From positions 347,040 through 411,039 of the forward strand of contig CP066687.1 in the NCBI GenBank assembly GCA_016432405.1: 64,000 bases of DNA. The letters run 5' to 3'. Under the pieces are notes generated by a model. The model ran no database searches and was not told the DNA's origin. It was given only the letters and a program-made list of their open reading frames with translations. Source of the DNA: Candidatus Giovannonibacteria bacterium. Its GTDB lineage: Bacteria > Patescibacteriota > Minisyncoccia > UBA11713 > 2-01-FULL-45-33. Both the position numbers and the translations under genes were made by a program. This document shows, in pieces, positions 3,686 to 58,484 of the stretch. Within the stretch, counting starts at the first letter, position 1. Every line of letters starts with the position of its first letter.

Positions 3686-4979
3686 AGAAAGTTTTATAGA
3701 CATTCTCCCCTCAAGCGGCAAGCGCGTGATTTCGGATGTTGTGATTGCGCCAAGAAAAGAAATTACTTCTCAGTTTTTCAAAGAGCCACCGGCGGCGATC
3801 AAGCCCCCGAAGCGCTATTTGAGGACGGGACGCAGGGGCAGGTCCGTTTTTACGATTTTGGCGCTGCTTGCGCTGGCTGCCGTCTTGAGCGCGGTTTTCG
3901 GGAAAGTTGAAGTGACGGTAACCCCGAAAGCGTTGTCTGTCCAAATGGACAAAACTTTGCCGTTGAGCAAATCCCGGGACGGCTTGCCTGACGGCAGCGC
4001 GGGCAATTTTCTGATTTTCAGGACTCTCACGCTGCCGCATAAGGAGAGCGGTTCATTTAACGCCACGGAAGAGAAATTCCAGGACCGGAAAGCGCAGGGT
4101 ATAGTCGCCCTTTTTAACAAATCTAAGGCGCCCCAGATTCTTATCGCTTCCACGCGCCTTGAGGCGCCGGACGGCAGAATTTATCGGATTCCAAAAACTA
4201 TAGTCGTGCCCGGTGCCAAGACACAGGGCGGGCAGGCGGTGCCCGGTTCGCTGGATGTGACGGTAATTGCGGACAAGGCGGGCGCGGAATACAATATCGG
4301 GCTCTCGGATTTTACTTTGCCCGGTTTTAAAGATTCTCCCAAATACGAACTCGTCTTTGCAAGGTCCAAAGCCGAAATATCCGGCGGAGCAAGCGGAAAA
4401 CAAATTGTGGTGGGCAAATCGGACACGGATTCCGCTCTGACGGCACTTATGCTGCGAGTGCGCGAGGCCGCGCCTAAACTTATTTCCGGAAAAATACCAA
4501 AGGAAGAATTTTTAATTGCGGAGTCGGTTGAATATGCAGCCGCCAAAGAGGGTTCGGACCCCGCCCCGGGTTCGCCGGCGGAAAAATTTGATTTCAGCGC
4601 GGAAGGAGAAATCAGGGGGGCAAGCGTTGAAAGGCGGGCTTTAGAGGAGGCGCTTTTGAAGAATTTGCCCGAACTTGCGGCGCTCGAGGGAGCTCCGGTG
4701 CGCGTAAAAAATCTGGACAAACTGCCGATGAAATTAATCGGCTATAAATTTGAAGCGCGCAGTTTTACGCTGGCCGTCCGCGGCACGGCGGAGATTGAGG
4801 CGGTTGTGGACACCCAGACGCTAAAAAGCGCGATTTTGGAGCATGGCGTCAGGGGCGCGATTCTGCGGTTTTCCGCTTTGCCATCAATATCCGGAGTGGA
4901 GGCGCGTTTTAAGCCCTTTTGGTGGCGCAAGACCCCCTCCGACCCCAGCCGCATTGACATTATTTTACAAGGGAGCTAA
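3663..4979 (+). CDS. Membrane-anchored hypothetical protein with a single TM helix after a ~65-aa cytoplasmic N-terminus
   Basis: ORF with TM segment VFTILALLALAAVLSAVFG. It is translationally coupled to the FtsA/PilM-like gene, and could be a PilN/PilO-type partner. Confidence 0.4.
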   Translation: MLMPRQTKESFIDILPSSGKRVISDVVIAPRKEITSQFFKEPPAAIKPPKRYLRTGRRGRSVFTILALLALAAVLSAVFGKVEVTVTPKALSVQMDKTLPLSKSRDGLPDGSAGNFLIFRTLTLPHKESGSFNATEEKFQDRKAQGIVALFNKSKAPQILIASTRLEAPDGRIYRIPKTIVVPGAKTQGGQAVPGSLDVTVIADKAGAEYNIGLSDFTLPGFKDSPKYELVFARSKAEISGGASGKQIVVGKSDTDSALTALMLRVREAAPKLISGKIPKEEFLIAESVEYAAAKEGSDPAPGSPAEKFDFSAEGEIRGASVERRALEEALLKNLPELAALEGAPVRVKNLDKLPMKLIGYKFEARSFTLAVRGTAEIEAVVDTQTLKSAILEHGVRGAILRFSALPSISGVEARFKPFWWRKTPSDPSRIDIILQGS

Positions 4980-20286: not shown

Positions 20287-20340
20287 TTTTATTTCACAAT
20301 AAATAAATTCGCTACAATATTTAATTTACTAAGGCATTTT

Positions 20341-20363
20341 GACGACCGTTAAGTTGTCTTAGT
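20341..20363. repeat. Degenerate direct repeat downstream of Cas2-like copy 2 (gacgaccgttaagttgtcttagt); its partner is at 20979..20999
   Basis: About 17 of 22 positions match aacggtcgtcaagttgctttagt. Core ACGACCG versus ACGGTCG. Confidence 0.5.
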
Positions 20364-20387
20364 GGATTTAAATTGGTGGAAAAGACG

Positions 20388-20961
20388 ATTAAGTTAATTC
20401 TTTTACGGAACCGGCTTTGGATACTTCTAAAATATGAACAAAATTTAAGAGGTTTTTGTCTTTAAGATCAGATAAAAATTCTTGATTAATCTTATTTTTG
20501 CCAAACCACACGCTTTTCTGCAACATTCTAAAACCTAAAGCCAATAATGCCTCTCTTAGCTAAGCGCGTTGTTTTTTCAATCTTTCTGGTATGTCAAAAA
20601 TTATGATTTTGATCTTATTATCTGACGCCGGCGTGTAATTTATTTTATTGTCTTTAAACCATCGTAGCTTATCTAAGCCCGTAGCGATTATATTCCATAA
20701 AGAACCGCTAATACTTTTCTTTTTCACTATAAATCCTTGTCGTTTTAACCCATTAAGCAATGAATAAAAACACTGTGTTTCAGATGACGACGAATGCGCA
20801 AAAACTTGTCTAGGCATCTGGCCACCGAATAATCTGCTTCTAGCCCTTCTATAAGATTCTGGATAATTAAAAAATTCGTCTAGAATCTCGACTGTTAGCA
20901 ATGCGCCATTTCCCAGTGTTTTTAGAATTAATTCTGCCTTACTGCCTCTTTTCATAAGCAT
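20388..20961 (-). pseudogene. wHTH plus Cas2-like protein, copy 2, interrupted by an in-frame TAG
   Basis: The ORF track stops at …IIIFDIPERLKKQRA. Hand translation of the same frame after the TAG continues LREALLALGFRMLQKSVWFGKNKINQEFLSDLKDKNLLNFVHILEV…, which aligns with the C-terminus of copy 3. Confidence 0.6.
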
Positions 20962-20978
20962 AGTTTACTAAACTAACT

Positions 20979-20999
20979 AAACGGTCGTCAAGTTGCTTT
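20979..20999. repeat. Direct repeat upstream of Cas2-like copy 2
   Basis: aacggtcgtcaagttgcttta. See the partner repeat at 20341. Confidence 0.5.
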
Positions 21000-21091
21000 A
21001 GTATATAATGGGTTGGCCAATTTTTGTTTCAATGATAAGAAAAACGCAGTTTGGTTTGATATTTTTGTTTGCTTAGGATAAGATATCTAAA

Positions 21092-33358: not shown

Positions 33359-33451
33359 TTGTTAGCCCTCCTTATTCGGAATTCGGGTTTCTTTACATAG
33401 CTAAGCATATGAACAATAGATTGTCAACAAGATGTGGTACTACCCTCCGCT

Positions 33452-33480
33452 GTCCGACACTTAGTTTCGGACATGACCCC
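33452..33480. repeat. 29-bp element gtccgacacttagtttcggacatgacccc
   Basis: Identical (29 of 29) to the reverse complement of 43783..43810 inside the 16S insertion. It belongs to the CCGAAACTAAGTTTCGG palindrome family. Confidence 0.8.
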
Positions 33481-36469: not shown

Positions 36470-37798
36470 ATGCCGCCGCTTAAAATTTATAATTTTCTAA
36501 GCCGGAAAAAAGAAGTTTTCAGGCCTATAAAGAAAGGGCTGGTCGGTTTTTACGCCTGCGGGCCGACGGTATACGACTACGCCCATATCGGAAACCTCCG
36601 CACCTATATTTTTGAAGATGTTTTGCGGCGCACTCTTGAATACGCGGGATATAAGCTAAAACACGTGATGAATATTACGGATGTGGATGATAAAATAATC
36701 GCCCGCGCGCGCTTGGCCCAAAAAAACATCGGCGATTTCTCCGCGCCGTATAAAACGGCGTTTTTTGGTGACATTAAAAAAATAAATATTTTGCCGGCTT
36801 GGAAATATCCTGAAGCGACCAGGCATATTCCGGAGATGGTTAAGATGGCGAAGCGGCTGCTCCGAAAAAAGATTGCTTATCCCGCGAAAGACGGAATTTA
36901 TTTTGACATTTCAAAATTCAAGTCCTATGGCCGGCTGGCGAACCCGAGGCCGGGCGACAGAAAAGATTTTGTCATTTGGAAGTACGCCAAAAAGAATGAG
37001 CCCTTTTGGAGGTCGCCGTTCGGCCCCGGGCGGCCCGGGTGGCATCTGGAGTGCTCGGCAATGTCAATGAAATATCTGGGAGAGAGTTTTGATATCCACG
37101 CGGGCGGGGTTGATTTACTTTTTCCGCACCACGAAAACGAGATTGCGCAGTCAGAGGGCGCGACTGGCAAAAAATTCGTAAAGTACTTTGTTGAGGGCGA
37201 GCATCTTTTGGTGAACGGCAAGAAAATGTCAAAATCGCTCGGCAATATTTTTACTTTGCGCGATTTGGAGCGGCGAAATTTTAATCCCCTCGCTTTTCGC
37301 TACCTCGTTCTCTCCGCTCATTACCGCTCGCAACTTAATTTCACTTGGGAGTCGCTTAAGGCGGCGGAGAATTCGCTGGAGAGATTGCAGGAGTTTGTGC
37401 TATCGCTTAAATTGACCGAAACTAAGTTTCGGTCAATTACTGACCGAAACTTAGTTTCGGGCAAAGCTTTTCAAAAAGCCATCTGTGACGACCTAAACAC
37501 CCCAAAAGCGCTTGCTGTGGTGTATGCCGTGATGAACGAATATTATACAAATAAGGAAAAATTTGATGCGCGAGCCGTTCTGGCCCTTTTATATGATTTT
37601 GACAAGGTTTTGGGGCTTGGATTGGCCGGTATAGCACCAAAGGCCCCGCCGCCGGAAGCGTTAAAATTGTTGAAAGAGCGCGAGGCGGCAAGAAAATCGG
37701 GCGATTTTAAGAAAGCCGATAAAATTCGTGAAAAAATAAGGCGTTTGGGCTGGCAAATCAAAGATACGCGAACCGGCCCCGAACTTATTCACGCATAA
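36470..37798 (+). CDS. cysS: Cysteinyl-tRNA synthetase
   Basis: CGPTVYDYAHIGN (HIGH) and KMSKSLGN. It contains an in-frame palindromic insertion at 37424..37460. Confidence 0.9.
   Translation: MPPLKIYNFLSRKKEVFRPIKKGLVGFYACGPTVYDYAHIGNLRTYIFEDVLRRTLEYAGYKLKHVMNITDVDDKIIARARLAQKNIGDFSAPYKTAFFGDIKKINILPAWKYPEATRHIPEMVKMAKRLLRKKIAYPAKDGIYFDISKFKSYGRLANPRPGDRKDFVIWKYAKKNEPFWRSPFGPGRPGWHLECSAMSMKYLGESFDIHAGGVDLLFPHHENEIAQSEGATGKKFVKYFVEGEHLLVNGKKMSKSLGNIFTLRDLERRNFNPLAFRYLVLSAHYRSQLNFTWESLKAAENSLERLQEFVLSLKLTETKFRSITDRNLVSGKAFQKAICDDLNTPKALAVVYAVMNEYYTNKEKFDARAVLALLYDFDKVLGLGLAGIAPKAPPPEALKLLKEREAARKSGDFKKADKIREKIRRLGWQIKDTRTGPELIHA
37424..37460. repeat. Dimeric palindromic element gaccgaaactaagtttcggtc-aattac-tgaccgaaacttagtttcgg inside cysS
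   Basis: Encodes TETKFRSITDRNLVSG. A near-identical dimer lies at 50925..50973. Confidence 0.75.
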
Positions 37799-42295: not shown

Positions 42296-42501
42296 GGGTG
42301 TGTAGTTCAGTGGTAGAACGCTGTCCTGACCTGCCCGCCGAACAAACCAAAATTTTGGATGCGTAGTTCAGTGGTAGAACGCTGTCCTGATAAGACAGAG
42401 GTCGGAGGTTCGATCCCTCCCGCATCCATAATCCAAAATTTTGGGTCGGCTTTGGCAGGCGGGTAAGACAGAGGTCCCAGGTTCGATCCCTGGCACACCC
42501 A
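42296..42501 (+). tRNA. Split tRNA-Ile (GAT): exon 1 at 42296..42329, exon 2 at 42464..42501, with a 134-nt insert in the anticodon
   Basis: The exons join to a 72-nt cloverleaf (acceptor gggtgtg/cacaccc, T-stem ccagg/cctgg) with anticodon loop ctGA|Taa. The insert contains a second complete tRNA. Confidence 0.5.
42357..42428 (+). tRNA. tRNA-Ile (anticodon GAT), nested inside the split tRNA
   Basis: Hand fold: acceptor ggatgcg/cgcatcc, D-stem gttc/gaac, anticodon stem ctgtc/gacag, loop ctGATaa, T-arm ggagg-ttcgatc-cctcc. Confidence 0.85.
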
Positions 42502-43373
42502 TAAAATAAAAGCACTTTTTCTTTTGTCCCGGGTCTCGAATTGAAGCTTCCGAGACCAACGCTTCACGTCAAAAATGACGCGATCGACACTTTAATTGTT
42601 GGACGCTCCGACGAAAAGTCGGAGTTGAGTACAAAAATTAAAATTGAAACTCCACGACCAGCTTCCGCTAGCCGTGCCTTGTTACGACTTACTCCCTGTC
42701 ATCCCGCCATCCTTATTCCCCGCTAAGCGGGACTTTTGGGTCGGCGGGACTTCCTTGAGTTGACGGGCGGTGAGTACAAGACTCGAGAACGTATTCACCG
42801 CAGTATAGCTGACCTGCGATTACTAGCGATTCCGTCTTCATGCGCTCGAGTTGCAGAGCGCAATCCGAACTGGGCCGGCCTTTGGTGAGATTAGCTCCGC
42901 CTCGCGGCTTCGCGACTCATTGTGGACGGCATTGTAGCACGTGTGTAGCCCAGGGCATCAAAGGGCCATGCTGACTTGGCGTCATCCCCGCCTTCCTCCC
43001 CGCGGTGCGGGGCAGTCTCTTGTGACACTTGTAACACAAAATAGGGGTTGCGTTCGTTGCCCCACTTAAGGGAACAGCTCAAGCCACGAACTGACGACAG
43101 CCATGCAGCACCTGTCCCGACGTCCTTGTGAGACGCACGCCTTTCGGCGGGCTTATCGTCGGGATTTCAAGCCCTGGTGAGGTTTTTCGTTTAACATCGA
43201 ATTGAACCACATGCTCCACCGCTTGTGCGAGTCCCCGTCTATTCCTTTGAGTTTTAAACTTGCGTTCGTACTTCCCAGGCGGATGACTTAACGCGTTAGC
43301 TTCGCCACTCGAAGGGTCGATACTTCCAATGGCTAGTCATCATCGTTTAGGGCGTGGACTACAAGGGTATCTA

Positions 43374-44003
43374 CAAATTTGTTACAACTCAATTTTACTA
43401 ATCGGTGCTAATTTTTGGAGTCAAGATTGGTGCTTGACAAATAAATTTTTATATGCTATGCTTGATATGGAGGTGATTTATGCTTGTATGGATTTGTGAG
43501 AAAACCGGGCCGCAAGGTTTAGCCCGACTTGTCTACAAAGAGTTCCTCGCGTGGATGCTCCTTGCGTCTTTGCTTGGTCAGGTTTATCTTTTGCTCCGGT
43601 AGAACCGAGGATCAAGCGATAAGAGGGAATGGAATTAAACGCTATTCCCTCTTTTTTATTTCCAAAAATTAGCACCGATTTTTTCTTGAGTGAGCAGAAT
43701 ATTTCTATCTGCTTCTGCATATCGCTATGCAGTTCGGACTATATCATGTCGCCTTTTCGGCGACCTCGGCGTATAGTCTCTACGGGGTCATGTCCGAAAC
43801 TAAGTGTCGGACAGCGGACTTCCCTCGGGATTGTCCTCCGACGCTTCGGCCGGAGGGGTTTCCCCGATATAGCTCCGACGAAAACCTCTCGGTTTTGTCG
43901 GAGTCCGACTTCACTATTAAAATAAATAGTGCGTCGGACCAAGTTTTTTATCCTCGGAATTTATTCCGAGGGGACTAAGCTGCCTTGTAAACAGCATTTG
44001 TTA
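43374..44003 (-). other. Intron-like insertion in the 16S gene at the h24 loop (E. coli position about 788/789)
   Basis: It interrupts the universally conserved GGAT|TAGATACCC block. The 3' two-thirds is dense in hairpins (for example ctccgacgaaaacc/ggttttgtcggag and cctcggaa/ttccgagg). No LAGLIDADG, GIY-YIG or HNH ORF is present. Confidence 0.6.
43407..43673 (+). mobile_element. Cassette with terminal inverted repeats (gctaatttttgg … ccaaaaattagc) carrying promoter, sORF and terminator, embedded in the 16S insertion and antisense to the rRNA
   Basis: TTGACA at 43434-43439, 17-nt spacer, TATGCT. SD ggaggtg and an ATG at 43480 open a 40-codon ORF running to TAG at 43602. Terminator agagggaat…attccctct plus T6. 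Paralog at 56433..56795. Confidence 0.5.
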
Positions 44004-44715
44004 ATCCTTTTTGATCCCCACGCTTTCGTGTTTCAGGGTCAGGAATGCCCCAGCAAGCTGCCTTCGCCTTTGGTGTTCCCCACGATATCAACGGATTTCA
44101 CCCCTACACCGTGAGTTCCGCTTGCCTCTGGCATCCTCCTAGTTTTGCCGTTTCCCGCCCATCTCTCCGGTTAAGCCGGAGTTTTTAAAACGGGACTAAC
44201 AAAACCCCCTACACACCCTTTACGCCCAGTAAATCCGGATAACGCTCGGGCTCCTCGTATTACCGCGGCTGCTGGCACGAGGTTAGCAAGCCCTTATTCT
44301 TAGGGTACAGTCATTTTTTTCCTCCCTTAAAAAAGCAGTTTACGCCCCGAAGGGCTTCCTCCTGCACGCGGCGTCGCTCGATCAGGCTTTCGCCCATTGT
44401 CGAATATTCTCGGCTGCTGCCACCCGTAGGTGTATGGACCGTTCTCAGTTCCATTGGTGGGGGCCAAGCTCTCACTCCCCCTAGCCGTCGTCGCCTTGGT
44501 GGGCCATTACCCCGCCAACAAGCTGATAGCCCGCAGGCCTCTCCCAGAGCCAATCTAAGTGTTTTAATCTCACGATACTATCGGGAATTAGCTCCGCTTT
44601 CGCGGAGTTATGCCCGTCTCTGGGGTGAGTTCCTACGTGTTACTACCCCGTCTGCCACTATCCCGCACCTTTTATTGCTAAAGGGTGCGGGACCGTATGA
44701 CTTGCATGCCTTATC

Positions 44716-44755
<40 letters not shown>

Positions 44756-45058
44756 AATAAGAAAAATTTCTTGCGAAATTTTTCTACTACGGGACAAAAG
44801 AAAAAATGCTCAAAATTTAACTGACTTAATTTTTTGGTGCAATTTTCTAAATTTTCAAGGTTCTCTTTTTGGGTCAAAACTCCTCAACAGGGCTCGGAGT
44901 AAATAAACCCGCGATAAGACCCCAAAGATCCTATCGCGGATTTACTATGCTAATTTTTCAAAATAGATTCAAAATAGATTAAAAGGTATCTGTGCCTCCG
45001 GCCATCTCAATATAAGTTAACCTATAATAATTCCATTATACTCGCCTAAAAAACGCCG

Positions 45059-50702: not shown

Positions 50703-51359
50703 CTATTTTTTAAACACTATAAATTTAAAACCGGTAAAATTCCAGATAAGCACGGCGATGTTGGCGATAAATTTCGCGTAATTCAGCCATTTTGACGACC
50801 CGACCGTCTCAATGATTGAAGCCGGCGCGTAAGTGGTGAGAACCACAATCAACACGCTGTTTATAATAAGTCCGCCAACGCCAACGGCGAAAAATTTTGG
50901 GAAGTCATGAAACAAGCTGATTTTGTCCGAAACTAAGTTTCGGTCAGTAAGTGACCGAAACTTAGTTTCGGACGTTTCGGACGAAAAAACCCAGAGTTTG
51001 TTCCACAAGTATCCGTTTATCACCGCAATTAAAAATCCGGGCGCATTGACCCAGCCGACAATTATGCCGGCGGTCACGCCTGTAAGATAACTTGTCAGGT
51101 TGAGAACCGCAAAGTCAATCGCCGTGGAAAGAAACCCCGCGGCGGCGTAGCGGCCGAATTGCGAAAAAAACGGTTTCACTCGCGCCCCGAGAAAGTCCCC
51201 GAACCAAACCCCCGCCGCCCAGAGAACCGGCAGTAAAACCAAAGCGGCAAGATTTTGGTACGGGAAAGAAATTTTTAAAAAATACAAAATTGCCAGCGTA
51301 AGCGCCCCGGTCAAAATTCCCGCAACCGCCCCGATCCAATAATCTTTTTTGATAATCAT
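50703..51359 (-). CDS. GtrA-like membrane protein
   Basis: 4-TM GtrA-type topology. It contains an in-frame palindromic insertion. Confidence 0.5.
   Translation of the reverse strand: MIIKKDYWIGAVAGILTGALTLAILYFLKISFPYQNLAALVLLPVLWAAGVWFGDFLGARVKPFFSQFGRYAAAGFLSTAIDFAVLNLTSYLTGVTAGIIVGWVNAPGFLIAVINGYLWNKLWVFSSETSETKFRSLTDRNLVSDKISLFHDFPKFFAVGVGGLIINSVLIVVLTTYAPASIIETVGSSKWLNYAKFIANIAVLIWNFTGFKFIVFKK
50925..50973. repeat. Dimeric palindromic element gtccgaaactaagtttcggtc-agtaag-tgaccgaaacttagtttcggac inside the GtrA-like gene
   Basis: Encodes SETKFRSLTDRNLVSD on the minus strand. Same family as 37424..37460. Confidence 0.75.
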
Positions 51360-54198: not shown

Positions 54199-55782
54199 TG
54201 GGTTTTAGTGTTGTTGATATTGGCCTTGGCAGCGTTTTTCCGTTTTTGGGATTTAAAGAGCGCCCCGCCGGGGCTTTGGGCGGATGAGGCAGTAAATGGC
54301 GTCAACGCGCTGCGGGTTATTGAAACTAATCCGCCAGCTGGCGGATGGAAAGTTTTTTATCCGGAAAATTTCGGCCGCGAAGGCCTTTTTATAAACATTC
54401 AATCCGTTTTTGTAAAATCATTCGGCACCGAGCCGTGGGTATTGCGCTTGCCGTCGGCGATATTTGGAGTATTAACTATTTTAGGACTATATTTAATGAC
54501 TTTGGAATTGTTTAGGAATTCGAAATTAGAAATTGAAAATTCTCATGGCGAGTTCATTGCTTTGGCATCATCATTATTTCTCGCCACGAGCTTTTGGCAT
54601 ATTAATTTCTCGCGGATAGGATTCCGCGCGATTATGGCGCCGTTTTTTTTGGTGTGGAGTTTTTATTTTTTACTAAAAGGAACGTCGAGACGTCCGACGT
54701 CCTATGGACGTCGGACGTCCATAATTATTCTCGCCGGCTTCACTTTCGGCCTTGGCTTCCATTCATATATCGCTTATCGCATCGCGCCGGTAATTGCGCT
54801 GTTACCGCTGTGGAAATTTTACAAAAACTGGAAAAATCAGGAAGCCGGACTTCCACTTGGAAGTCCGGCTTCCAAGTACTGCGCTCCGTGCTTTATTGGA
54901 CTTTTTATTTTCGCCGCTTTCATCGCCTCGCTCCCCCTTCTTTGGTATTACGTCCAAAATCCGCAGGATTTTTTGGGGCGGACGGCGGCGATTTCAATTT
55001 TTGACGCTCCCAGCCCGCTCGGACAATTTTCAGAAAATCTTATAAAAACGCTGGGGATGTTCAATATCGCTGGCGATTTCAACTGGCGGCACAATCTCAC
55101 CGGCTCTCCGCAGCTTTGGTGGCCAGTGGGAATTTTATTTTTAATCGGCATATGGAAATCGCTTAAAAAATTACAGTGGCCATATAGTTTTGTGTTGCTG
55201 TGGTTTATAACGATGCTTTTGCCGGTTGCCGTTTCCAATGAATCTTTGCCGCACGCGCTCCGCGCGATTATTTTAATTCCGCCAGCGATGATTTTCGCCG
55301 CCTTGGGGCTAAATTGGCTTTGGGAAAATGTCAAGCCGCAGTTCAGGATTTTTATTTATATTTTTTTGGCCACCGCCGTGCTTCAGGCCTACAGCCAGTA
55401 TTTTTTACACTGGGCGCCGAATTTCAACGTTCATCAGGCATTTCAGACAGAAATTACCGAAAAGGCACGCTGGCTTAAGGCAGAGCCCAAAGACATAAAA
55501 AAATACGTCGTTACCGACGCGGTTGACCAAGCGGACACAACCGGCACGCCGATGTCCTTTCAGCCGATAGTTTTTATCACGGACACCTTTTATTCGCAGA
55601 AACAGGCGGAGAAAAATATTTATTATATTTCTTTAAAGAATCTTGATTACGCGGATTGTTCCCAAAAATGCGAGTTTCTGCCCGTGGAATACCGCCCAGC
55701 TATTTTTAAAACAATCAAACAAAAAATCCCGGGCTTGCGCTTAGACGCCTCTTCGGGATTTGTGGTATTAAAAAATTATTGA
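54187..55782 (+). CDS. GT39/ArnT-family glycosyltransferase (PMT_2-like)
   Basis: N-terminal WADEAVNGVNALRVIE and more than 10 TM helices. Paralog of 56820..58484. Confidence 0.65.
   Translation: MKNHWVLVLLILALAAFFRFWDLKSAPPGLWADEAVNGVNALRVIETNPPAGGWKVFYPENFGREGLFINIQSVFVKSFGTEPWVLRLPSAIFGVLTILGLYLMTLELFRNSKLEIENSHGEFIALASSLFLATSFWHINFSRIGFRAIMAPFFLVWSFYFLLKGTSRRPTSYGRRTSIIILAGFTFGLGFHSYIAYRIAPVIALLPLWKFYKNWKNQEAGLPLGSPASKYCAPCFIGLFIFAAFIASLPLLWYYVQNPQDFLGRTAAISIFDAPSPLGQFSENLIKTLGMFNIAGDFNWRHNLTGSPQLWWPVGILFLIGIWKSLKKLQWPYSFVLLWFITMLLPVAVSNESLPHALRAIILIPPAMIFAALGLNWLWENVKPQFRIFIYIFLATAVLQAYSQYFLHWAPNFNVHQAFQTEITEKARWLKAEPKDIKKYVVTDAVDQADTTGTPMSFQPIVFITDTFYSQKQAEKNIYYISLKNLDYADCSQKCEFLPVEYRPAIFKTIKQKIPGLRLDASSGFVVLKNY
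54689..54720. repeat. Palindromic element gacgtccgacgtcc-tat-ggacgtcggacgtc, in-frame (encodes RRPTSYGRRTS)
   Basis: Identical core to 58054..58085. Same family as 46866..46907. A 7-bp repeat lies upstream at 54521..54542. Confidence 0.75.
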
Positions 55783-55821
55783 ACTATACAAGTACTCACG
55801 ATCGTATAAATTTGTATAGAC
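55781..55821. repeat. Direct repeat downstream of Cas2-like copy 3 (actatacaagtactcacgatcgtataaatttgtatagac)
   Basis: Matches 56373..56413 (actatacacttttacacgatcgttggaatttgtatagac). The core is 22 of 25 identical. Confidence 0.7.
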
Positions 55822-55825
55822 GCAT

Positions 55826-56347
55826 CTATTTAGTATTTATAGTGCCCTTATTTTGTACCGTGAAAATATGAATGTTGGACATTAAGTTCATCTCTTCTAA
55901 ATTTTCTAAGAATTCCTGAGGTAACGGTCGCTCCCCCATCCATACACTTTTTTGTAAAGGCTTAAAATCGTAGGCAACTAGTTCTATTCTTAACCAATCG
56001 CGCTTTCTTCGCTCGCGCTCTGGAACGTCAAATATTACAATCCTTAAAATGCCGTCTTTTTTGGGCAAATCAAATGCGTTATCCGTTTTTGTGTTTTTGA
56101 TAAATTTTTTACCCAAATTCGTTATTCCCCACGTGTTATTTTTTCTTTCCACCAAGCCTTGTTTTTGCAATCTGGTCAAAATAACGGAAAAGGTTTGACG
56201 TTTAAATTGATAGTTTGAATCCAGCCCTAAAAGTTGCCTCCAGGCTCTTGCTTGCGGATACTTTTTTGGAAAAAAAGAATCCAGAGTCGCAAAACCTAAG
56301 TCGCCGATGGTTTTTAGGGTCAATTTAGTAAGATTTAGTTTTTTCAT
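55826..56347 (-). CDS. wHTH plus Cas2-like domain protein (PaaX-like), copy 3
   Basis: LRIVIFDVPERERRKRDWLRIELVAYDFKPLQKSVW aligns with copy 1. Confidence 0.55.
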   Translation of the reverse strand: MKKLNLTKLTLKTIGDLGFATLDSFFPKKYPQARAWRQLLGLDSNYQFKRQTFSVILTRLQKQGLVERKNNTWGITNLGKKFIKNTKTDNAFDLPKKDGILRIVIFDVPERERRKRDWLRIELVAYDFKPLQKSVWMGERPLPQEFLENLEEMNLMSNIHIFTVQNKGTINTK

Positions 56348-56372
56348 GTTTCAATATTGTTCCAATACTACC

Positions 56373-56413
56373 ATACTATACACTTTTACACGATCGTTGG
56401 AATTTGTATAGAC
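56373..56413. repeat. Direct repeat upstream of Cas2-like copy 3
   Basis: See 55781..55821. It is followed immediately by the TIR cassette. Confidence 0.7.
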
Positions 56414-56432
56414 CATTGTGAATTAATCCGGT

Positions 56433-56795
56433 ACTAATTTTCGGAGTCAAGGATTGGTGCTTGACAGGCTAAAATTAGATATGGTAAACTTCAACAAGAA
56501 TAAGGAGGGAAGGAGGGCTAGAGTATGATAGAGATAACAGAGTGTAAGGATAGCATAATCATTATTTCTTGGCATCCAGGACACTTTACAGCAAACGAGG
56601 GCGCACAGCATGACCGTATCAGAGATTTAATGAGGAGGGGCTATAGACTGATTTCCAACGGAGTAACGTCTGAAGGAGCTATCACGTTACAAGCAATTCC
56701 TCCTGTTACCAAAGACTGAAGAATGATATGTCCTGCATCCGTACAGATGGCGCATCGCTTTTATAGATGCGCTATTTCTTTTTCCAAAAATTAGC
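56433..56795 (+). mobile_element. Second copy of the TIR cassette with promoter, sORF and terminator
   Basis: actaattttcggagtcaaggattggtgcttgaca matches the 16S-insert copy. TTGACA is at 56461. SD aaggagggaaggaggg opens a 64-codon ORF at 56525..56719. Terminator gcgcatc…gatgcgc plus T-run. Right TIR ccaaaaattagc is at 56784. Confidence 0.5.
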
Positions 56796-56819
56796 GCTAT
56801 TTAATGATAGAATGAGGGT

Positions 56820-58484
56820 ATGGATAAATATGCCAATGTTTTAGCGGTTTTGATGCTTGTAGCGATGTTCGGGCTGATGCTTGCTTCCAGTTGGAACGAT
56901 TCGGCGATTTTTGACGAGGTGGCGCATATCGGCGCGGGTTATACTTATCTTAAATATCTGGACGGGCGGTTAAATCCGGAGCACCCGCCGCTTCTCAAGA
57001 GCATGGCCGCTTTGCCGCTTTTGTTTTTATCCGCCAGTGGGCGGATTAAAGAAAATATCGCGGCGCAGCCATTTTGGACTATGGAGAATGTAAATGACCG
57101 CCAATGGGCCACGGGTAATTATCTTTTATATGAGGCGGGCAATGACGCGGACCGGATTCTTTTCTGGTCGCGCCTGCCGATGATTCTGCTTACGATATTG
57201 TTTGGCTGGATATTATTTTCTTGGGTAAAAAAGCGCTATGGCGCAGCGGTGGGGTTGCTTACTTTGTTTTTCTTCGCTGTCTCCCCCACTTTTTTGGCGC
57301 ATGGCCGATACGTAACAACAGACGTCGGCGCCGCGCTCGGATTTTTCCTGGGAATAATTTTCTTTTTGCGGTTTTTGGAACGGCAAGATTTAAAGTCAGC
57401 AACTTGGCTCGGTGTAGTGTTGGGGCTTGTCTTGCTTTTTAAATTCTCTTTAGTTTTATTACTCCCGATTTATTTAATAATTTTAATATTTAAAAATTGG
57501 AATTTGATTGAAAATTGGAAATTGAAAATTAGAAATTTAGCGTTAGCCACCATTATCGCGCTCGCTGTAATTTACGCCGCGTATATTCCGCAAATCTGGG
57601 GTTATCCGCATGACCAGCAGATGAAAGACGCGCGCTACATCCTTGCCGGCTATCAGTATCCCTCTTTGGCCAAGCTGGATTTTTGGCTGACCGAACAAAC
57701 GCTCACAAGGCCGCTTGGGCTTTACCTGCAAGGATTTTTGATGGTTGCGCGGCGCACCGCCGGTGGGAACACGGCCTATTTTATGGGTGAAATTTCATCA
57801 AAAGGATGGTGGTCCTATTTTCCGGTTCTGGCAATCACAAAAGAACAGCTGGGGTTTTATATTCTGGCGATAATTGCTTTATTTACGGCGATTAAGAATC
57901 GGGCTCGGCCGGATTTTAATTCGCTCGCGGCTATTATTTTTATAATTTTTTACTGGGCAAGCTCAATTTTAAATCCTCTTAACATCGGCGTACGGCATGT
58001 TCTGCCGACTTTCCCTTTTCTTTACTTTTTGGTTGCGAAAGGCTTAATTTCAGGACGTCCGACGTCCTATGGACGTCGGACGTCCATATATTTAATTAGC
58101 ACTTGGATGATTATAGAAACACTTTTTGCTTTCCCATATTATCTTTCTTACTACAACATTTTGGGCGGCGGCGAAGAAAACGGATATAAAATCGCAACCG
58201 ATTCAAACTACGACTGGGGGCAAGACCTAAAACGTTTGACGTTTTGGGTGAAAGAAAACAATCTAGATAAAATTTATCTTGATTATTTCGGAGGCGGCTC
58301 GCCTAAATATTATCTGGGCGATAAATTTGAGCCGTGGTGGCCAGCAAAGGGCGCACCTCCCCGGGAAAGCTATTTCGCGATCTCTATAAATAGTTTAGCC
58401 GGGTCGGAGAATTTATATCCTTGGCTGAAAAGTAAAAACCTCGCTGCGCGCGCCGGCAGTTCAATCTTAATCTACAGGTTTTAA
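56820..58484 (+). CDS. GT39/ArnT-family glycosyltransferase, paralog
   Basis: WNDSAIFDEVAHIGAGYTYL and more than 10 TM helices. It carries the 7-bp repeat (57492..57537) and the palindrome (58054..58085) at positions equivalent to those in its paralog. Confidence 0.65.
   Translation: MDKYANVLAVLMLVAMFGLMLASSWNDSAIFDEVAHIGAGYTYLKYLDGRLNPEHPPLLKSMAALPLLFLSASGRIKENIAAQPFWTMENVNDRQWATGNYLLYEAGNDADRILFWSRLPMILLTILFGWILFSWVKKRYGAAVGLLTLFFFAVSPTFLAHGRYVTTDVGAALGFFLGIIFFLRFLERQDLKSATWLGVVLGLVLLFKFSLVLLLPIYLIILIFKNWNLIENWKLKIRNLALATIIALAVIYAAYIPQIWGYPHDQQMKDARYILAGYQYPSLAKLDFWLTEQTLTRPLGLYLQGFLMVARRTAGGNTAYFMGEISSKGWWSYFPVLAITKEQLGFYILAIIALFTAIKNRARPDFNSLAAIIFIIFYWASSILNPLNIGVRHVLPTFPFLYFLVAKGLISGRPTSYGRRTSIYLISTWMIIETLFAFPYYLSYYNILGGGEENGYKIATDSNYDWGQDLKRLTFWVKENNLDKIYLDYFGGGSPKYYLGDKFEPWWPAKGAPPRESYFAISINSLAGSENLYPWLKSKNLAARAGSSILIYRF

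Follow-up and report, generated by a model that had tools for sequence, protein, structure and literature searches.

A 64,000-nucleotide (nt) stretch of the genome of a Candidatus Giovannonibacteria bacterium (contig CP066687.1, positions 347,040 to 411,039 of the forward strand; hereafter the window, meaning the whole stretch) contains two copies of a small cassette in which a promoter, a short open reading frame (ORF), and a terminator are enclosed by a pair of inverted arms. One copy is located in a group I intron of the 16S rRNA gene; the other is intergenic, next to a PaaX-like gene. We consider it probable that both belong to a family of mobile, self-contained minigene cassettes for which intron loops serve as safe harbours. 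Searches with patterns and an nhmmer profile recovered 15 members of this family, 14 of them non-redundant, from Giovannonibacteria, other Parcubacteria, and Saccharibacteria. We found no description of such cassettes in the literature searched, and the family is apparently undescribed.

The first-pass annotation of this DNA had proposed that a promoter-ORF-terminator cassette bounded by terminal inverted repeats (TIRs) occurs at 56373-56815 and again at 43374-43700. The sequences and coordinates of both segments are as given there, and the proposal of a two-copy cassette is supported. The two copies have the following features.

43400-43680, plus strand: cassette copy 1, inside the 16S intron and antisense to the rRNA
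43400-43419 and 43661-43680: arms of copy 1, 20 bp, perfect
43420-43438: -35 hairpin of copy 1, with TTGACA at 43434-43439 and the -10 box TATGCT at 43457-43462
43469-43473: GGAGG of copy 1
43480-43602: 40-codon ORF of copy 1
43621-43659: terminator of copy 1
56425-56803, plus strand: cassette copy 2
56425-56445, plus strand: left arm of copy 2, AATCCGGTACTAATTTTCGGA, a degenerate inverted repeat with 56783-56803
56446-56490, plus strand: promoter module of copy 2, with the hairpin GTCAAG-GATTGGTG-CTTGAC overlapping the -35 box; TTGACA at 56461-56466, an 18-nt spacer, and TGg followed by the -10 box TAAACT at 56485-56490
56503-56517, plus strand: ribosome-binding site of copy 2, a double GGAGG
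56525-56719, plus strand: 64-codon ORF of copy 2, with GGAGG upstream
56745-56783, plus strand: intrinsic terminator of copy 2, with a stem of 12 bp and a T-run after it
56783-56803, plus strand: right arm of copy 2, TCCAAAAATTAGCGCTATTT, the right edge of a block that is missing from "empty" relatives

Pairwise alignment of the two copies reveals two similar blocks only, a 39-nt block composed of arm and promoter and a second one composed of T-run and arm. The left block, TAATC(C)GGT(G/A)CTAATTTT(T/C)GGAGTCAAG(G)ATTGGTGCTTGACA, is found at 56423-56466 and 43398-43439; the copies differ in it by two substitutions and two single-base indels, and a loosely similar spacer and -10 box follow. The right block consists in both copies of a T-run and CCAAAAATTAGC(A/G)C. 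The inverted terminal dodecamer described earlier, CCAAAAATTAGC, is indeed present at 56784-56795 and 43662-43673, with its reverse complement at 43407-43418, but in copy 1 the repeat is really 20 bp long and perfect, and in copy 2 it is degenerate. Outside these blocks we find no resemblance: the 60 bp upstream of the two loci, which had been said to align, do so no better than shuffled sequence (P = 0.31), and neither the downstream flanks (shuffle P = 0.98) nor the cargo interiors (P = 0.74) of copies 1 and 2 can be aligned. A promoter scanner identifies TTGACA-18-TAAACT at 56461-56490 and TTGACA-17-TATGCT at 43434-43462, each scoring 10/12 and each with a TG upstream of the -10 box. The terminator hairpins have folding energies of -16.5 kcal/mol in copy 1 (12-bp stem followed by a U-run, z = -4.4) and -16.9 kcal/mol in copy 2 (z = -4.86); a simple terminator scanner missed both because their loops are 9 nt long. 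A chance match between generic promoters was considered as the cause of the similarity and rejected, as the 23-nt core of the left block has no match in 100 shuffles of the window and the nhmmer profile matches copy 2 at 56426-56491 with E = 1.9e-12.

All members of the family share the same frame. The cassettes are about 250-400 bp in size, and their parts follow in the order arm (about 20 bp), -35 hairpin, spacer, -10 box, GGAGG-type site, variable cargo, terminator, and second arm. The arm core common to the cassettes is (A/T)AATTTTTGGA(G). In 13 of the 15 a hairpin with a conserved stem and a variable loop of 4-9 nt overlaps TTGACA, and L051a and L132 have another stem sequence. TTGAC/TA is present in every copy, the spacer measures 17 nt in 11 copies and 16, 18, 18, and 19 nt in the rest, and nine copies have a TG before the -10 box. 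The terminator hairpins range from -16.5 to -18.8 kcal/mol (z = -4.4 to -5.3), and a T-run follows the hairpin on the antisense strand only. The earlier statement that the promoter and the ends are conserved, and not the ORFs, holds across the 15 cassettes, including those from other genomes. The idea attached to it, that the RNA or the promoter alone is the functional unit, is weakened by the finding that 13 of the 14 non-redundant cassettes contain a ribosome-binding site and an open frame.

One cassette from another organism differs from copy 1 mainly in its cargo. The strict promoter block had no match in the genome-contig scan, and a metagenome scan with the promoter block returned a single match, L013, which is the 16S gene of a related organism with a homologous intron and exons about 97% identical to those in the window. 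In arms and promoter it matches copy 1 at nearly 100% identity, the sequence from ribosome-binding site to terminator is unalignable, and the cargo is a third, unrelated ORF for a two-helix membrane protein of 57 amino acids (aa). L013 (at 155-180) and L095 (about 70-95 from the exon junction) also have an extra 24-nt insert, GGAGCCTGCCCCGCTCTTTTTTGC, between left arm and -35 hairpin; that this common insert is accompanied by unrelated cargo ORFs favours the view that cargoes are replaced while the frame stays closely related.

The remaining members were found mostly among 113 loci from a genome scan anchored on the 16S exon and the terminal intron G (omega-G). The cassettes reside in the following places.

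Last P9-type loop of the 788 intron: window copy 1, L013, L110, L095, L061, L051a
P6a loop of the 788 intron: L065, L085, L051b, L084
P5 loop of the 788 intron: L098, L072
Separate 16S insertion near position 1400: L094, L132
Intergenic, outside rRNA genes: window copy 2

The L051 intron holds two cassettes, the second of which, in P6a, has the variant arms GTTCAAATTTCTGG. Viral contigs yielded no match to the arm-plus-hairpin pattern and single chance matches only to the arm 16-mer, and BLAST of the cassette against phage and plasmid collections gave no match. The phage contig L038 (IMGVR_UViG_3300043399_000364) has at 4863-4881 an identical 19-nt -35 hairpin, TCAAGATTGGTGCTTGACA, located 16 nt upstream of TATAAT, with a ribosome-binding site and a 74-aa ORF downstream and without arms; this match is probably a coincidence, since about 1-2 chance matches are expected.

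The 16S insert that carries copy 1 had been tentatively interpreted as a derivative of a composite element that lacks the protein gene. This interpretation does not hold: judging from its sequence, the insert at position 788 is a group I intron, and the family resides mainly in intron loops. The rRNA gene and the intron have these coordinates.

42640-44761, minus strand: 16S rRNA gene
44003 down to 43374, minus strand: group I intron, 630 nt, inserted in the 16S gene at the position of E. coli U788

The interruption falls between GGAU and UAGAUACCC. The 5' exon ends in GGAU (44007-44004), whose U is read from the sequence as the 5' splice-site base; the exon end and the UA that comes next pair with the guide sequence UAGUCC (43977-43972), giving the U788-G wobble of P1. 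The last intron base is the omega-G, the complement of c43374, and joining of the exons restores GGAUUAGAUACCC. In a permissive scan the Rfam model Intron_gpI matches over its full length (positions 1-253) at 43715-43937 on the minus strand with 38.8 bits (E = 2.4e-8; gathering score 50). About 100 of the 113 exon-plus-omega-G loci have inserts of 270-1400 nt at the same site. No endonuclease ORF is found in the window's intron. Introns of this kind are already known from rRNA genes of the ultra-small bacteria of the Candidate Phyla Radiation (CPR), and the fullest survey of CPR rRNA insertions annotates Pfam-positive ORFs only, with introns such as these classed as ORF-less (PMC11270868). Inserts at position 788 come from Parcubacteria, Saccharibacteria, and, unexpectedly, from metagenome-assembled genomes of Actinobacteria (Solirubrobacterales, Acidimicrobiia; L039, L041, L045, L053, L057, L071, L073, L075, and others), whose inserts have a distinct conserved 3' end (CACTTCTGTTACTTTC...); the 788 insertion site is therefore not specific to the CPR. 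The tip of P6a in the window's intron (43795-43830) contains a sequence resembling repetitive extragenic palindromes (REP-like), GTCCGACACTTAGTTTCGGAC, that is also found in an intergenic region at 33450-33480.

Within this intron, copy 1 makes up the terminal loop of the hairpin that comes last, after P9 and before the 3' splice site. In the intron fold as predicted, its arms pair without mismatch over 20 bp and thereby close off the insert. Compact relatives of the intron (L107, L077, L112) have a mere short hairpin at the same site, which makes the cassette look like an insertion. All 14 rRNA-resident cassettes, at four insertion sites, are antisense to the rRNA; these copies represent roughly seven independent insertion contexts. 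The arms covary: among 12 copies, 11 of the 20 pairs have changed on both sides and 96.7% of the cells remain paired, values that none of 500 shuffles reach, and slid registers are only 30-48% paired. Intron-resident copies have three arm mismatches, each of which reads as G-U in the RNA of rRNA sense and as A-C on the cassette-sense strand. Copy 2, the sole member outside rRNA genes, has degenerate arms and an intact promoter.

The copies occupy unrelated contexts, namely the P5, P6a, and P9-type loops of the 788 intron, the insertion near position 1400, and one intergenic site. One arm type, CCGAGCAC(A/T)A(T/A)TTTTTGGA, is shared by L085, in P6a of the 788 intron, and by L094 and L132, in the insertion near 1400; another, AATCGGTGC, is common to the P9-type loop and the non-rRNA locus. 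The observation that the same arm type recurs at different insertion sites indicates that the arms travel with the cassette.

These observations are consistent with the following scenario. In gene-dense genomes intron loops would provide safe harbours, and possibly vehicles. In the pre-rRNA the two arms would pair into a long closing helix that spares the folding of the ribozyme; such an insulating helix would explain why the arms are perfect and covarying in introns and decay at the copy outside an intron. Antisense would be the sole orientation tolerated, because a terminator that works in one direction would in the sense orientation cut short rRNA synthesis, and because the cargo depends on a promoter of its own. 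The cargo would be transcribed from the cassette promoter and presumably translated by the ribosome, and the terminator would keep antisense transcripts from extending into the intron core or, in the case of copy 2, into the PMT_2 gene downstream.

Thirteen of the cargoes are ORFs of 34-76 codons and one is a tRNA-like RNA. The cargo differs in every copy; N-termini and bodies are mutually unrelated. The cargo frames contain no stop in 781 codons versus 20-56 in each of the other five frames (chance about 10^-17.5), which indicates that these frames are maintained open. Pfam has no match for any cargo, and none contains an endonuclease domain of the LAGLIDADG, GIY-YIG, HNH, or His-Cys type. 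For the 64-aa product of copy 2 and the 40-aa product of copy 1, searches for homologues returned only the query itself, spurious matches to repeat proteins, or nothing. The copy 2 ORF is called as a gene on Logan contigs; these contigs are all 100% identical and thus uninformative on population variation. A single-sequence model of its product is fairly confident (predicted local distance difference test score 79.6) and has a predicted beta-beta-alpha-beta-beta topology, for which a fold search found no significant structural neighbour; a permissive Rfam scan of copy 2 returned noise only. The tRNA-like cargo (L051 6071-6143, the same as L103 3353-3425) is reported by ARAGORN as "tRNA-???" with a 3-nt anticodon loop, and it has an extended acceptor stem and D and T arms. 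A strongly hydrophobic segment (Kyte-Doolittle average of at least 1.9 in a 17-residue window) is found in 9 of the 14 cargoes, and five are hydrophilic; the copy 1 ORF reaches 1.95 and the copy 2 ORF, for which a soluble alpha/beta fold is predicted, 0.86. The membrane-peptide cargoes suggest small membrane effectors, type-I-toxin-like or of another sort.

Several points weigh against a family of mobile minigenes. Transcription and translation of the cassettes are predicted only, and the case for coding is made by open frames and ribosome-binding sites only, because the cargoes have neither homologues nor Pfam matches. No target-site duplication outside the arms was seen in any copy inspected, and the window and the fetched loci contain neither a transposase nor an autonomous partner with the same TIRs. 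An exact empty allele of the intron loop was not found; every intron with the CTCAAG...CTTGAG helix has a cassette. Several of the P9-loop copies in Giovannonibacteria probably go back to a single insertion, so that independent events number about seven and not 14, and the support of the wobble pairs for an rRNA-sense stem, at three of three events, is suggestive only. The sampling is biased toward 8-kb windows around 16S genes, and the preference for rRNA introns may therefore be overstated.

An alternative explanation is that the cassettes are addiction modules resembling type I toxin-antitoxin systems, in which a small membrane toxin is held in check by the antisense pre-rRNA or the excised intron as antitoxin, and which stabilize introns without an endonuclease. 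Type I loci such as hok/sok, tisB/istR, and fst, which often lie on or near mobile DNA, specify small hydrophobic peptides of low conservation, with an antisense RNA on the opposite strand. The likeness fits about two-thirds of the cargoes, the strongly hydrophobic ORFs, among them the 40-aa ORF of copy 1. The rRNA-resident copies are all fully antisense to a highly transcribed RNA, and the window's intron lacks an endonuclease ORF. However, one cargo in three is hydrophilic (the 64-aa product of copy 2 among them) or an RNA, no dedicated antitoxin small RNA gene accompanies the cassettes, copy 2 has no evident antisense partner, and the 5' untranslated regions are short and simple, in contrast to those of typical type I toxin mRNAs. 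We regard this explanation as unlikely. The related idea that the cassettes are plug-in units with exchangeable cargo, which in introns act as an addiction or regulatory device with the toxin mRNA checked by antisense pre-rRNA or excised intron, appears to us equally doubtful. If it were true, the device would stabilize endonuclease-less introns in the single rRNA operon of the CPR, or, alternatively, toxin release would be coupled to the shutdown of rRNA synthesis.

A second alternative, put forward in the first-pass annotation, is that one composite mobile element includes as modules the gene next to copy 2, the repeats on either side of this gene, and the cassette, and that the 16S copy is a derivative without the gene. 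The gene and its repeats are located as follows.

55826-56347, minus strand: PaaX-like gene (winged helix-turn-helix plus Cas2-like domain), in a module with palindromes that spans 55784-56411
55784-55819 and 56376-56411: palindromic sites flanking the PaaX-like gene

The gene had been called Cas2-like; its score with CRISPR_Cas2 (22.2 bits) is below the cut-off of 23.8, and it is instead similar to PaaX_M, the central Cas2-like domain of PaaX (56.7 bits, cut-off 24). The flanking direct repeats exist, but each is a palindrome of about 36 bp, CTATACAA-N7-CGATCG-N7-TTGTATAG. The window has three such PaaX-like modules (1790-2388, 20339-21003, and 55784-56411, with genes at 1829-2350, 20404-20961, and 55826-56347), the second of which is probably broken; each gene has two palindromes of about 36-38 bp with the arrangement half-site-N7/8-CGATCG-N7/8-half-site.

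Orthologous loci were found through the downstream PMT_2 gene. In three related genomes (L152/153, L154/155, L156) the tandem PMT_2 genes abut or overlap, and the entire block from the left PaaX palindrome through the right arm of the cassette is missing, PaaX-like gene and cassette alike. In a further genome (L157/158) the PaaX-like gene is present at 78.5% identity, and the same site is occupied by an inverted, cargo-less element of about 95 bp (L157 2270-2350, L158 1630-1715) composed of an arm, 16-25 nt, TGTCAAGCACCAATCTTGAC, and a second arm, with a -35 box that points at the PaaX-like gene. The TTGACA of this mini-element and an AAAAAT located 18 nt away in the opposite arm could form a promoter facing that gene. 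Its promoter hairpin is nearly identical to that of the cassette (one inserted base); the outer arms and the surrounding spacer have diverged. The five genomes compared are about equidistant, with L157 closest to the "empty" L154. This comparison indicates that the block of PaaX module and element is an insertion, and that inversion of the element's interior and loss of its cargo are both possible. The PaaX-like gene itself looks like a mobile module, since the copy at 55.8 kb was inserted between PMT_2 genes that abut elsewhere. An identical REP-like palindrome of 35 nt, GACGTCCGACGTCC.., is found in both tandem PMT_2 genes (54689-54723, 58054-58088).

At this one locus, gene and element co-occur in two lineages and are both missing from three, so that a local composite insertion is conceivable. 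Elsewhere the two are unassociated: none of the 113 16S loci, with the other 13 non-redundant cassettes, has a PaaX/Cas2-like gene, and no cassette stands beside the PaaX-like genes at 1829-2350 and 20404-20961 or beside that of L154. In addition, the intron in the 16S gene is an ordinary one of group I, for which about 100 counterparts occupy the same rRNA site, and the similarity of the two window copies outside the arms is not significant. A composite element is therefore quite unlikely in our assessment; the "Cas2 element" is at best a local juxtaposition.

A third alternative holds that the cassette is a mere peripheral RNA domain of the intron, that only its rRNA-sense structure matters, and that promoter, ribosome-binding site, ORF, and terminator are coincidental. 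The 20-bp helix of the arms in the intron fold, the -35 hairpin with its conserved stem and variable loop, a pattern typical of constraint at the RNA level, and the wobble pairs that fit the rRNA-sense strand are all compatible with this view. However, we consider it very unlikely, because consensus -35 and -10 hexamers are present in all 15 copies at a spacing of 16-19 nt (17 in 11), ribosome-binding sites and open frames exceed chance by far, T-runs follow the hairpins on the antisense strand only, and the frame persists with an intact promoter outside introns, at 56.4 kb and in L157.

That the cassettes are decayed remnants of homing endonuclease genes would agree with the classical location of these genes in intron loops, with the degenerate ORFs reported from CPR rRNA introns (PMC11270868), and with antisense endonuclease genes in nuclear rDNA introns (PMC9548176), but this is highly improbable, as no cargo matches any endonuclease family, the cargoes are unrelated among themselves, one is a tRNA-like RNA, and the L065 intron has an intact LAGLIDADG_3 gene on the sense strand besides an antisense cassette in another loop, which reveals the cassette as independent of the endonuclease gene.

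A family of mobile minigene cassettes, the reading we prefer, resembles several known systems without coinciding with any of them. Correia elements of Neisseria are promoter-bearing miniature inverted-repeat transposable elements (MITEs): small, dispersed, and transposase-less, with TIRs of about 20 bp, sigma-70-type promoters, and long hairpins when transcribed. The cassettes are similar in their TIRs, small size, promoter, dispersal, and lack of a transposase. Unlike these MITEs, they form a complete expression unit, show no target-site duplication, are mostly found in rRNA intron loops and there always antisense, and apparently have few copies per genome. Integron cassettes, which are promoterless and bounded by attC sites used by an integrase, likewise combine a conserved frame with highly variable, often tiny orphan ORFs, whereas here a promoter and a terminator are part of every cassette and there is no sign of an integrase.

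Other parallels come from rRNA genes. Like intron homing endonuclease genes, the cassette is an independent unit in the terminal loop of a peripheral helix that can hitch-hike with the intron, and like some of them, as exemplified by antisense genes in nuclear rDNA introns that bring their own promoters (PMC9548176), it is antisense to the rRNA and has its own expression signals. It differs from them in its cargo of 34-76 aa without an endonuclease domain, in having its own arms, and in also occurring outside introns. Intervening sequences (IVSs) with internal ORFs (23S IVS or S23p-type) are mentioned in PMC11270868. Like the cassette, a 23S IVS is placed at a helix tip of the rRNA transcript and closed by a long stem of inverted repeats, in some cases with a small ORF inside; however, IVSs are located in helices of the mature rRNA and excised by RNase III, whereas the cassettes are in introns, antisense, and equipped with promoter and terminator. 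We also considered copies 1 and 2 as RNase III-excised IVSs and rejected this, because copy 1 is inside a group I intron and copy 2 outside the rRNA genes.

The window has two further repeat structures. At 42297-42501 on the plus strand, two halves resembling tRNA-Ile(GAU) (42297-42330 and 42464-42501) are split inside the anticodon by about 133 nt. The insert holds a complete tRNA-Ile(GAU) at 42356-42429; it has a closing stem of about 10 bp, CCTGCCCGCC/GGCAGGCGGG, and contains AAAATTTTGG twice. The REP-like sequence GACCGAAACTAAGTTTCGGTC occurs as doublets at 37405-37460 and 50916-50971.

CPR bacteria are known for their intron-laden rRNA genes. Our findings indicate that many of the introns considered ORF-less carry an antisense, self-promoted minigene with fast-changing cargo. 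If so, the intron would itself harbour a further layer of mobile DNA in the form of the cassettes, and masking of rRNA genes in annotation pipelines would hide real genes. The cargoes add candidate small proteins and one tRNA-like RNA to the inventory of organisms with minimal genomes. The arrangement would represent a natural insulated expression cassette within an essential RNA gene, and it suggests a testable link between the transcription of the rRNA and the expression of the antisense gene.

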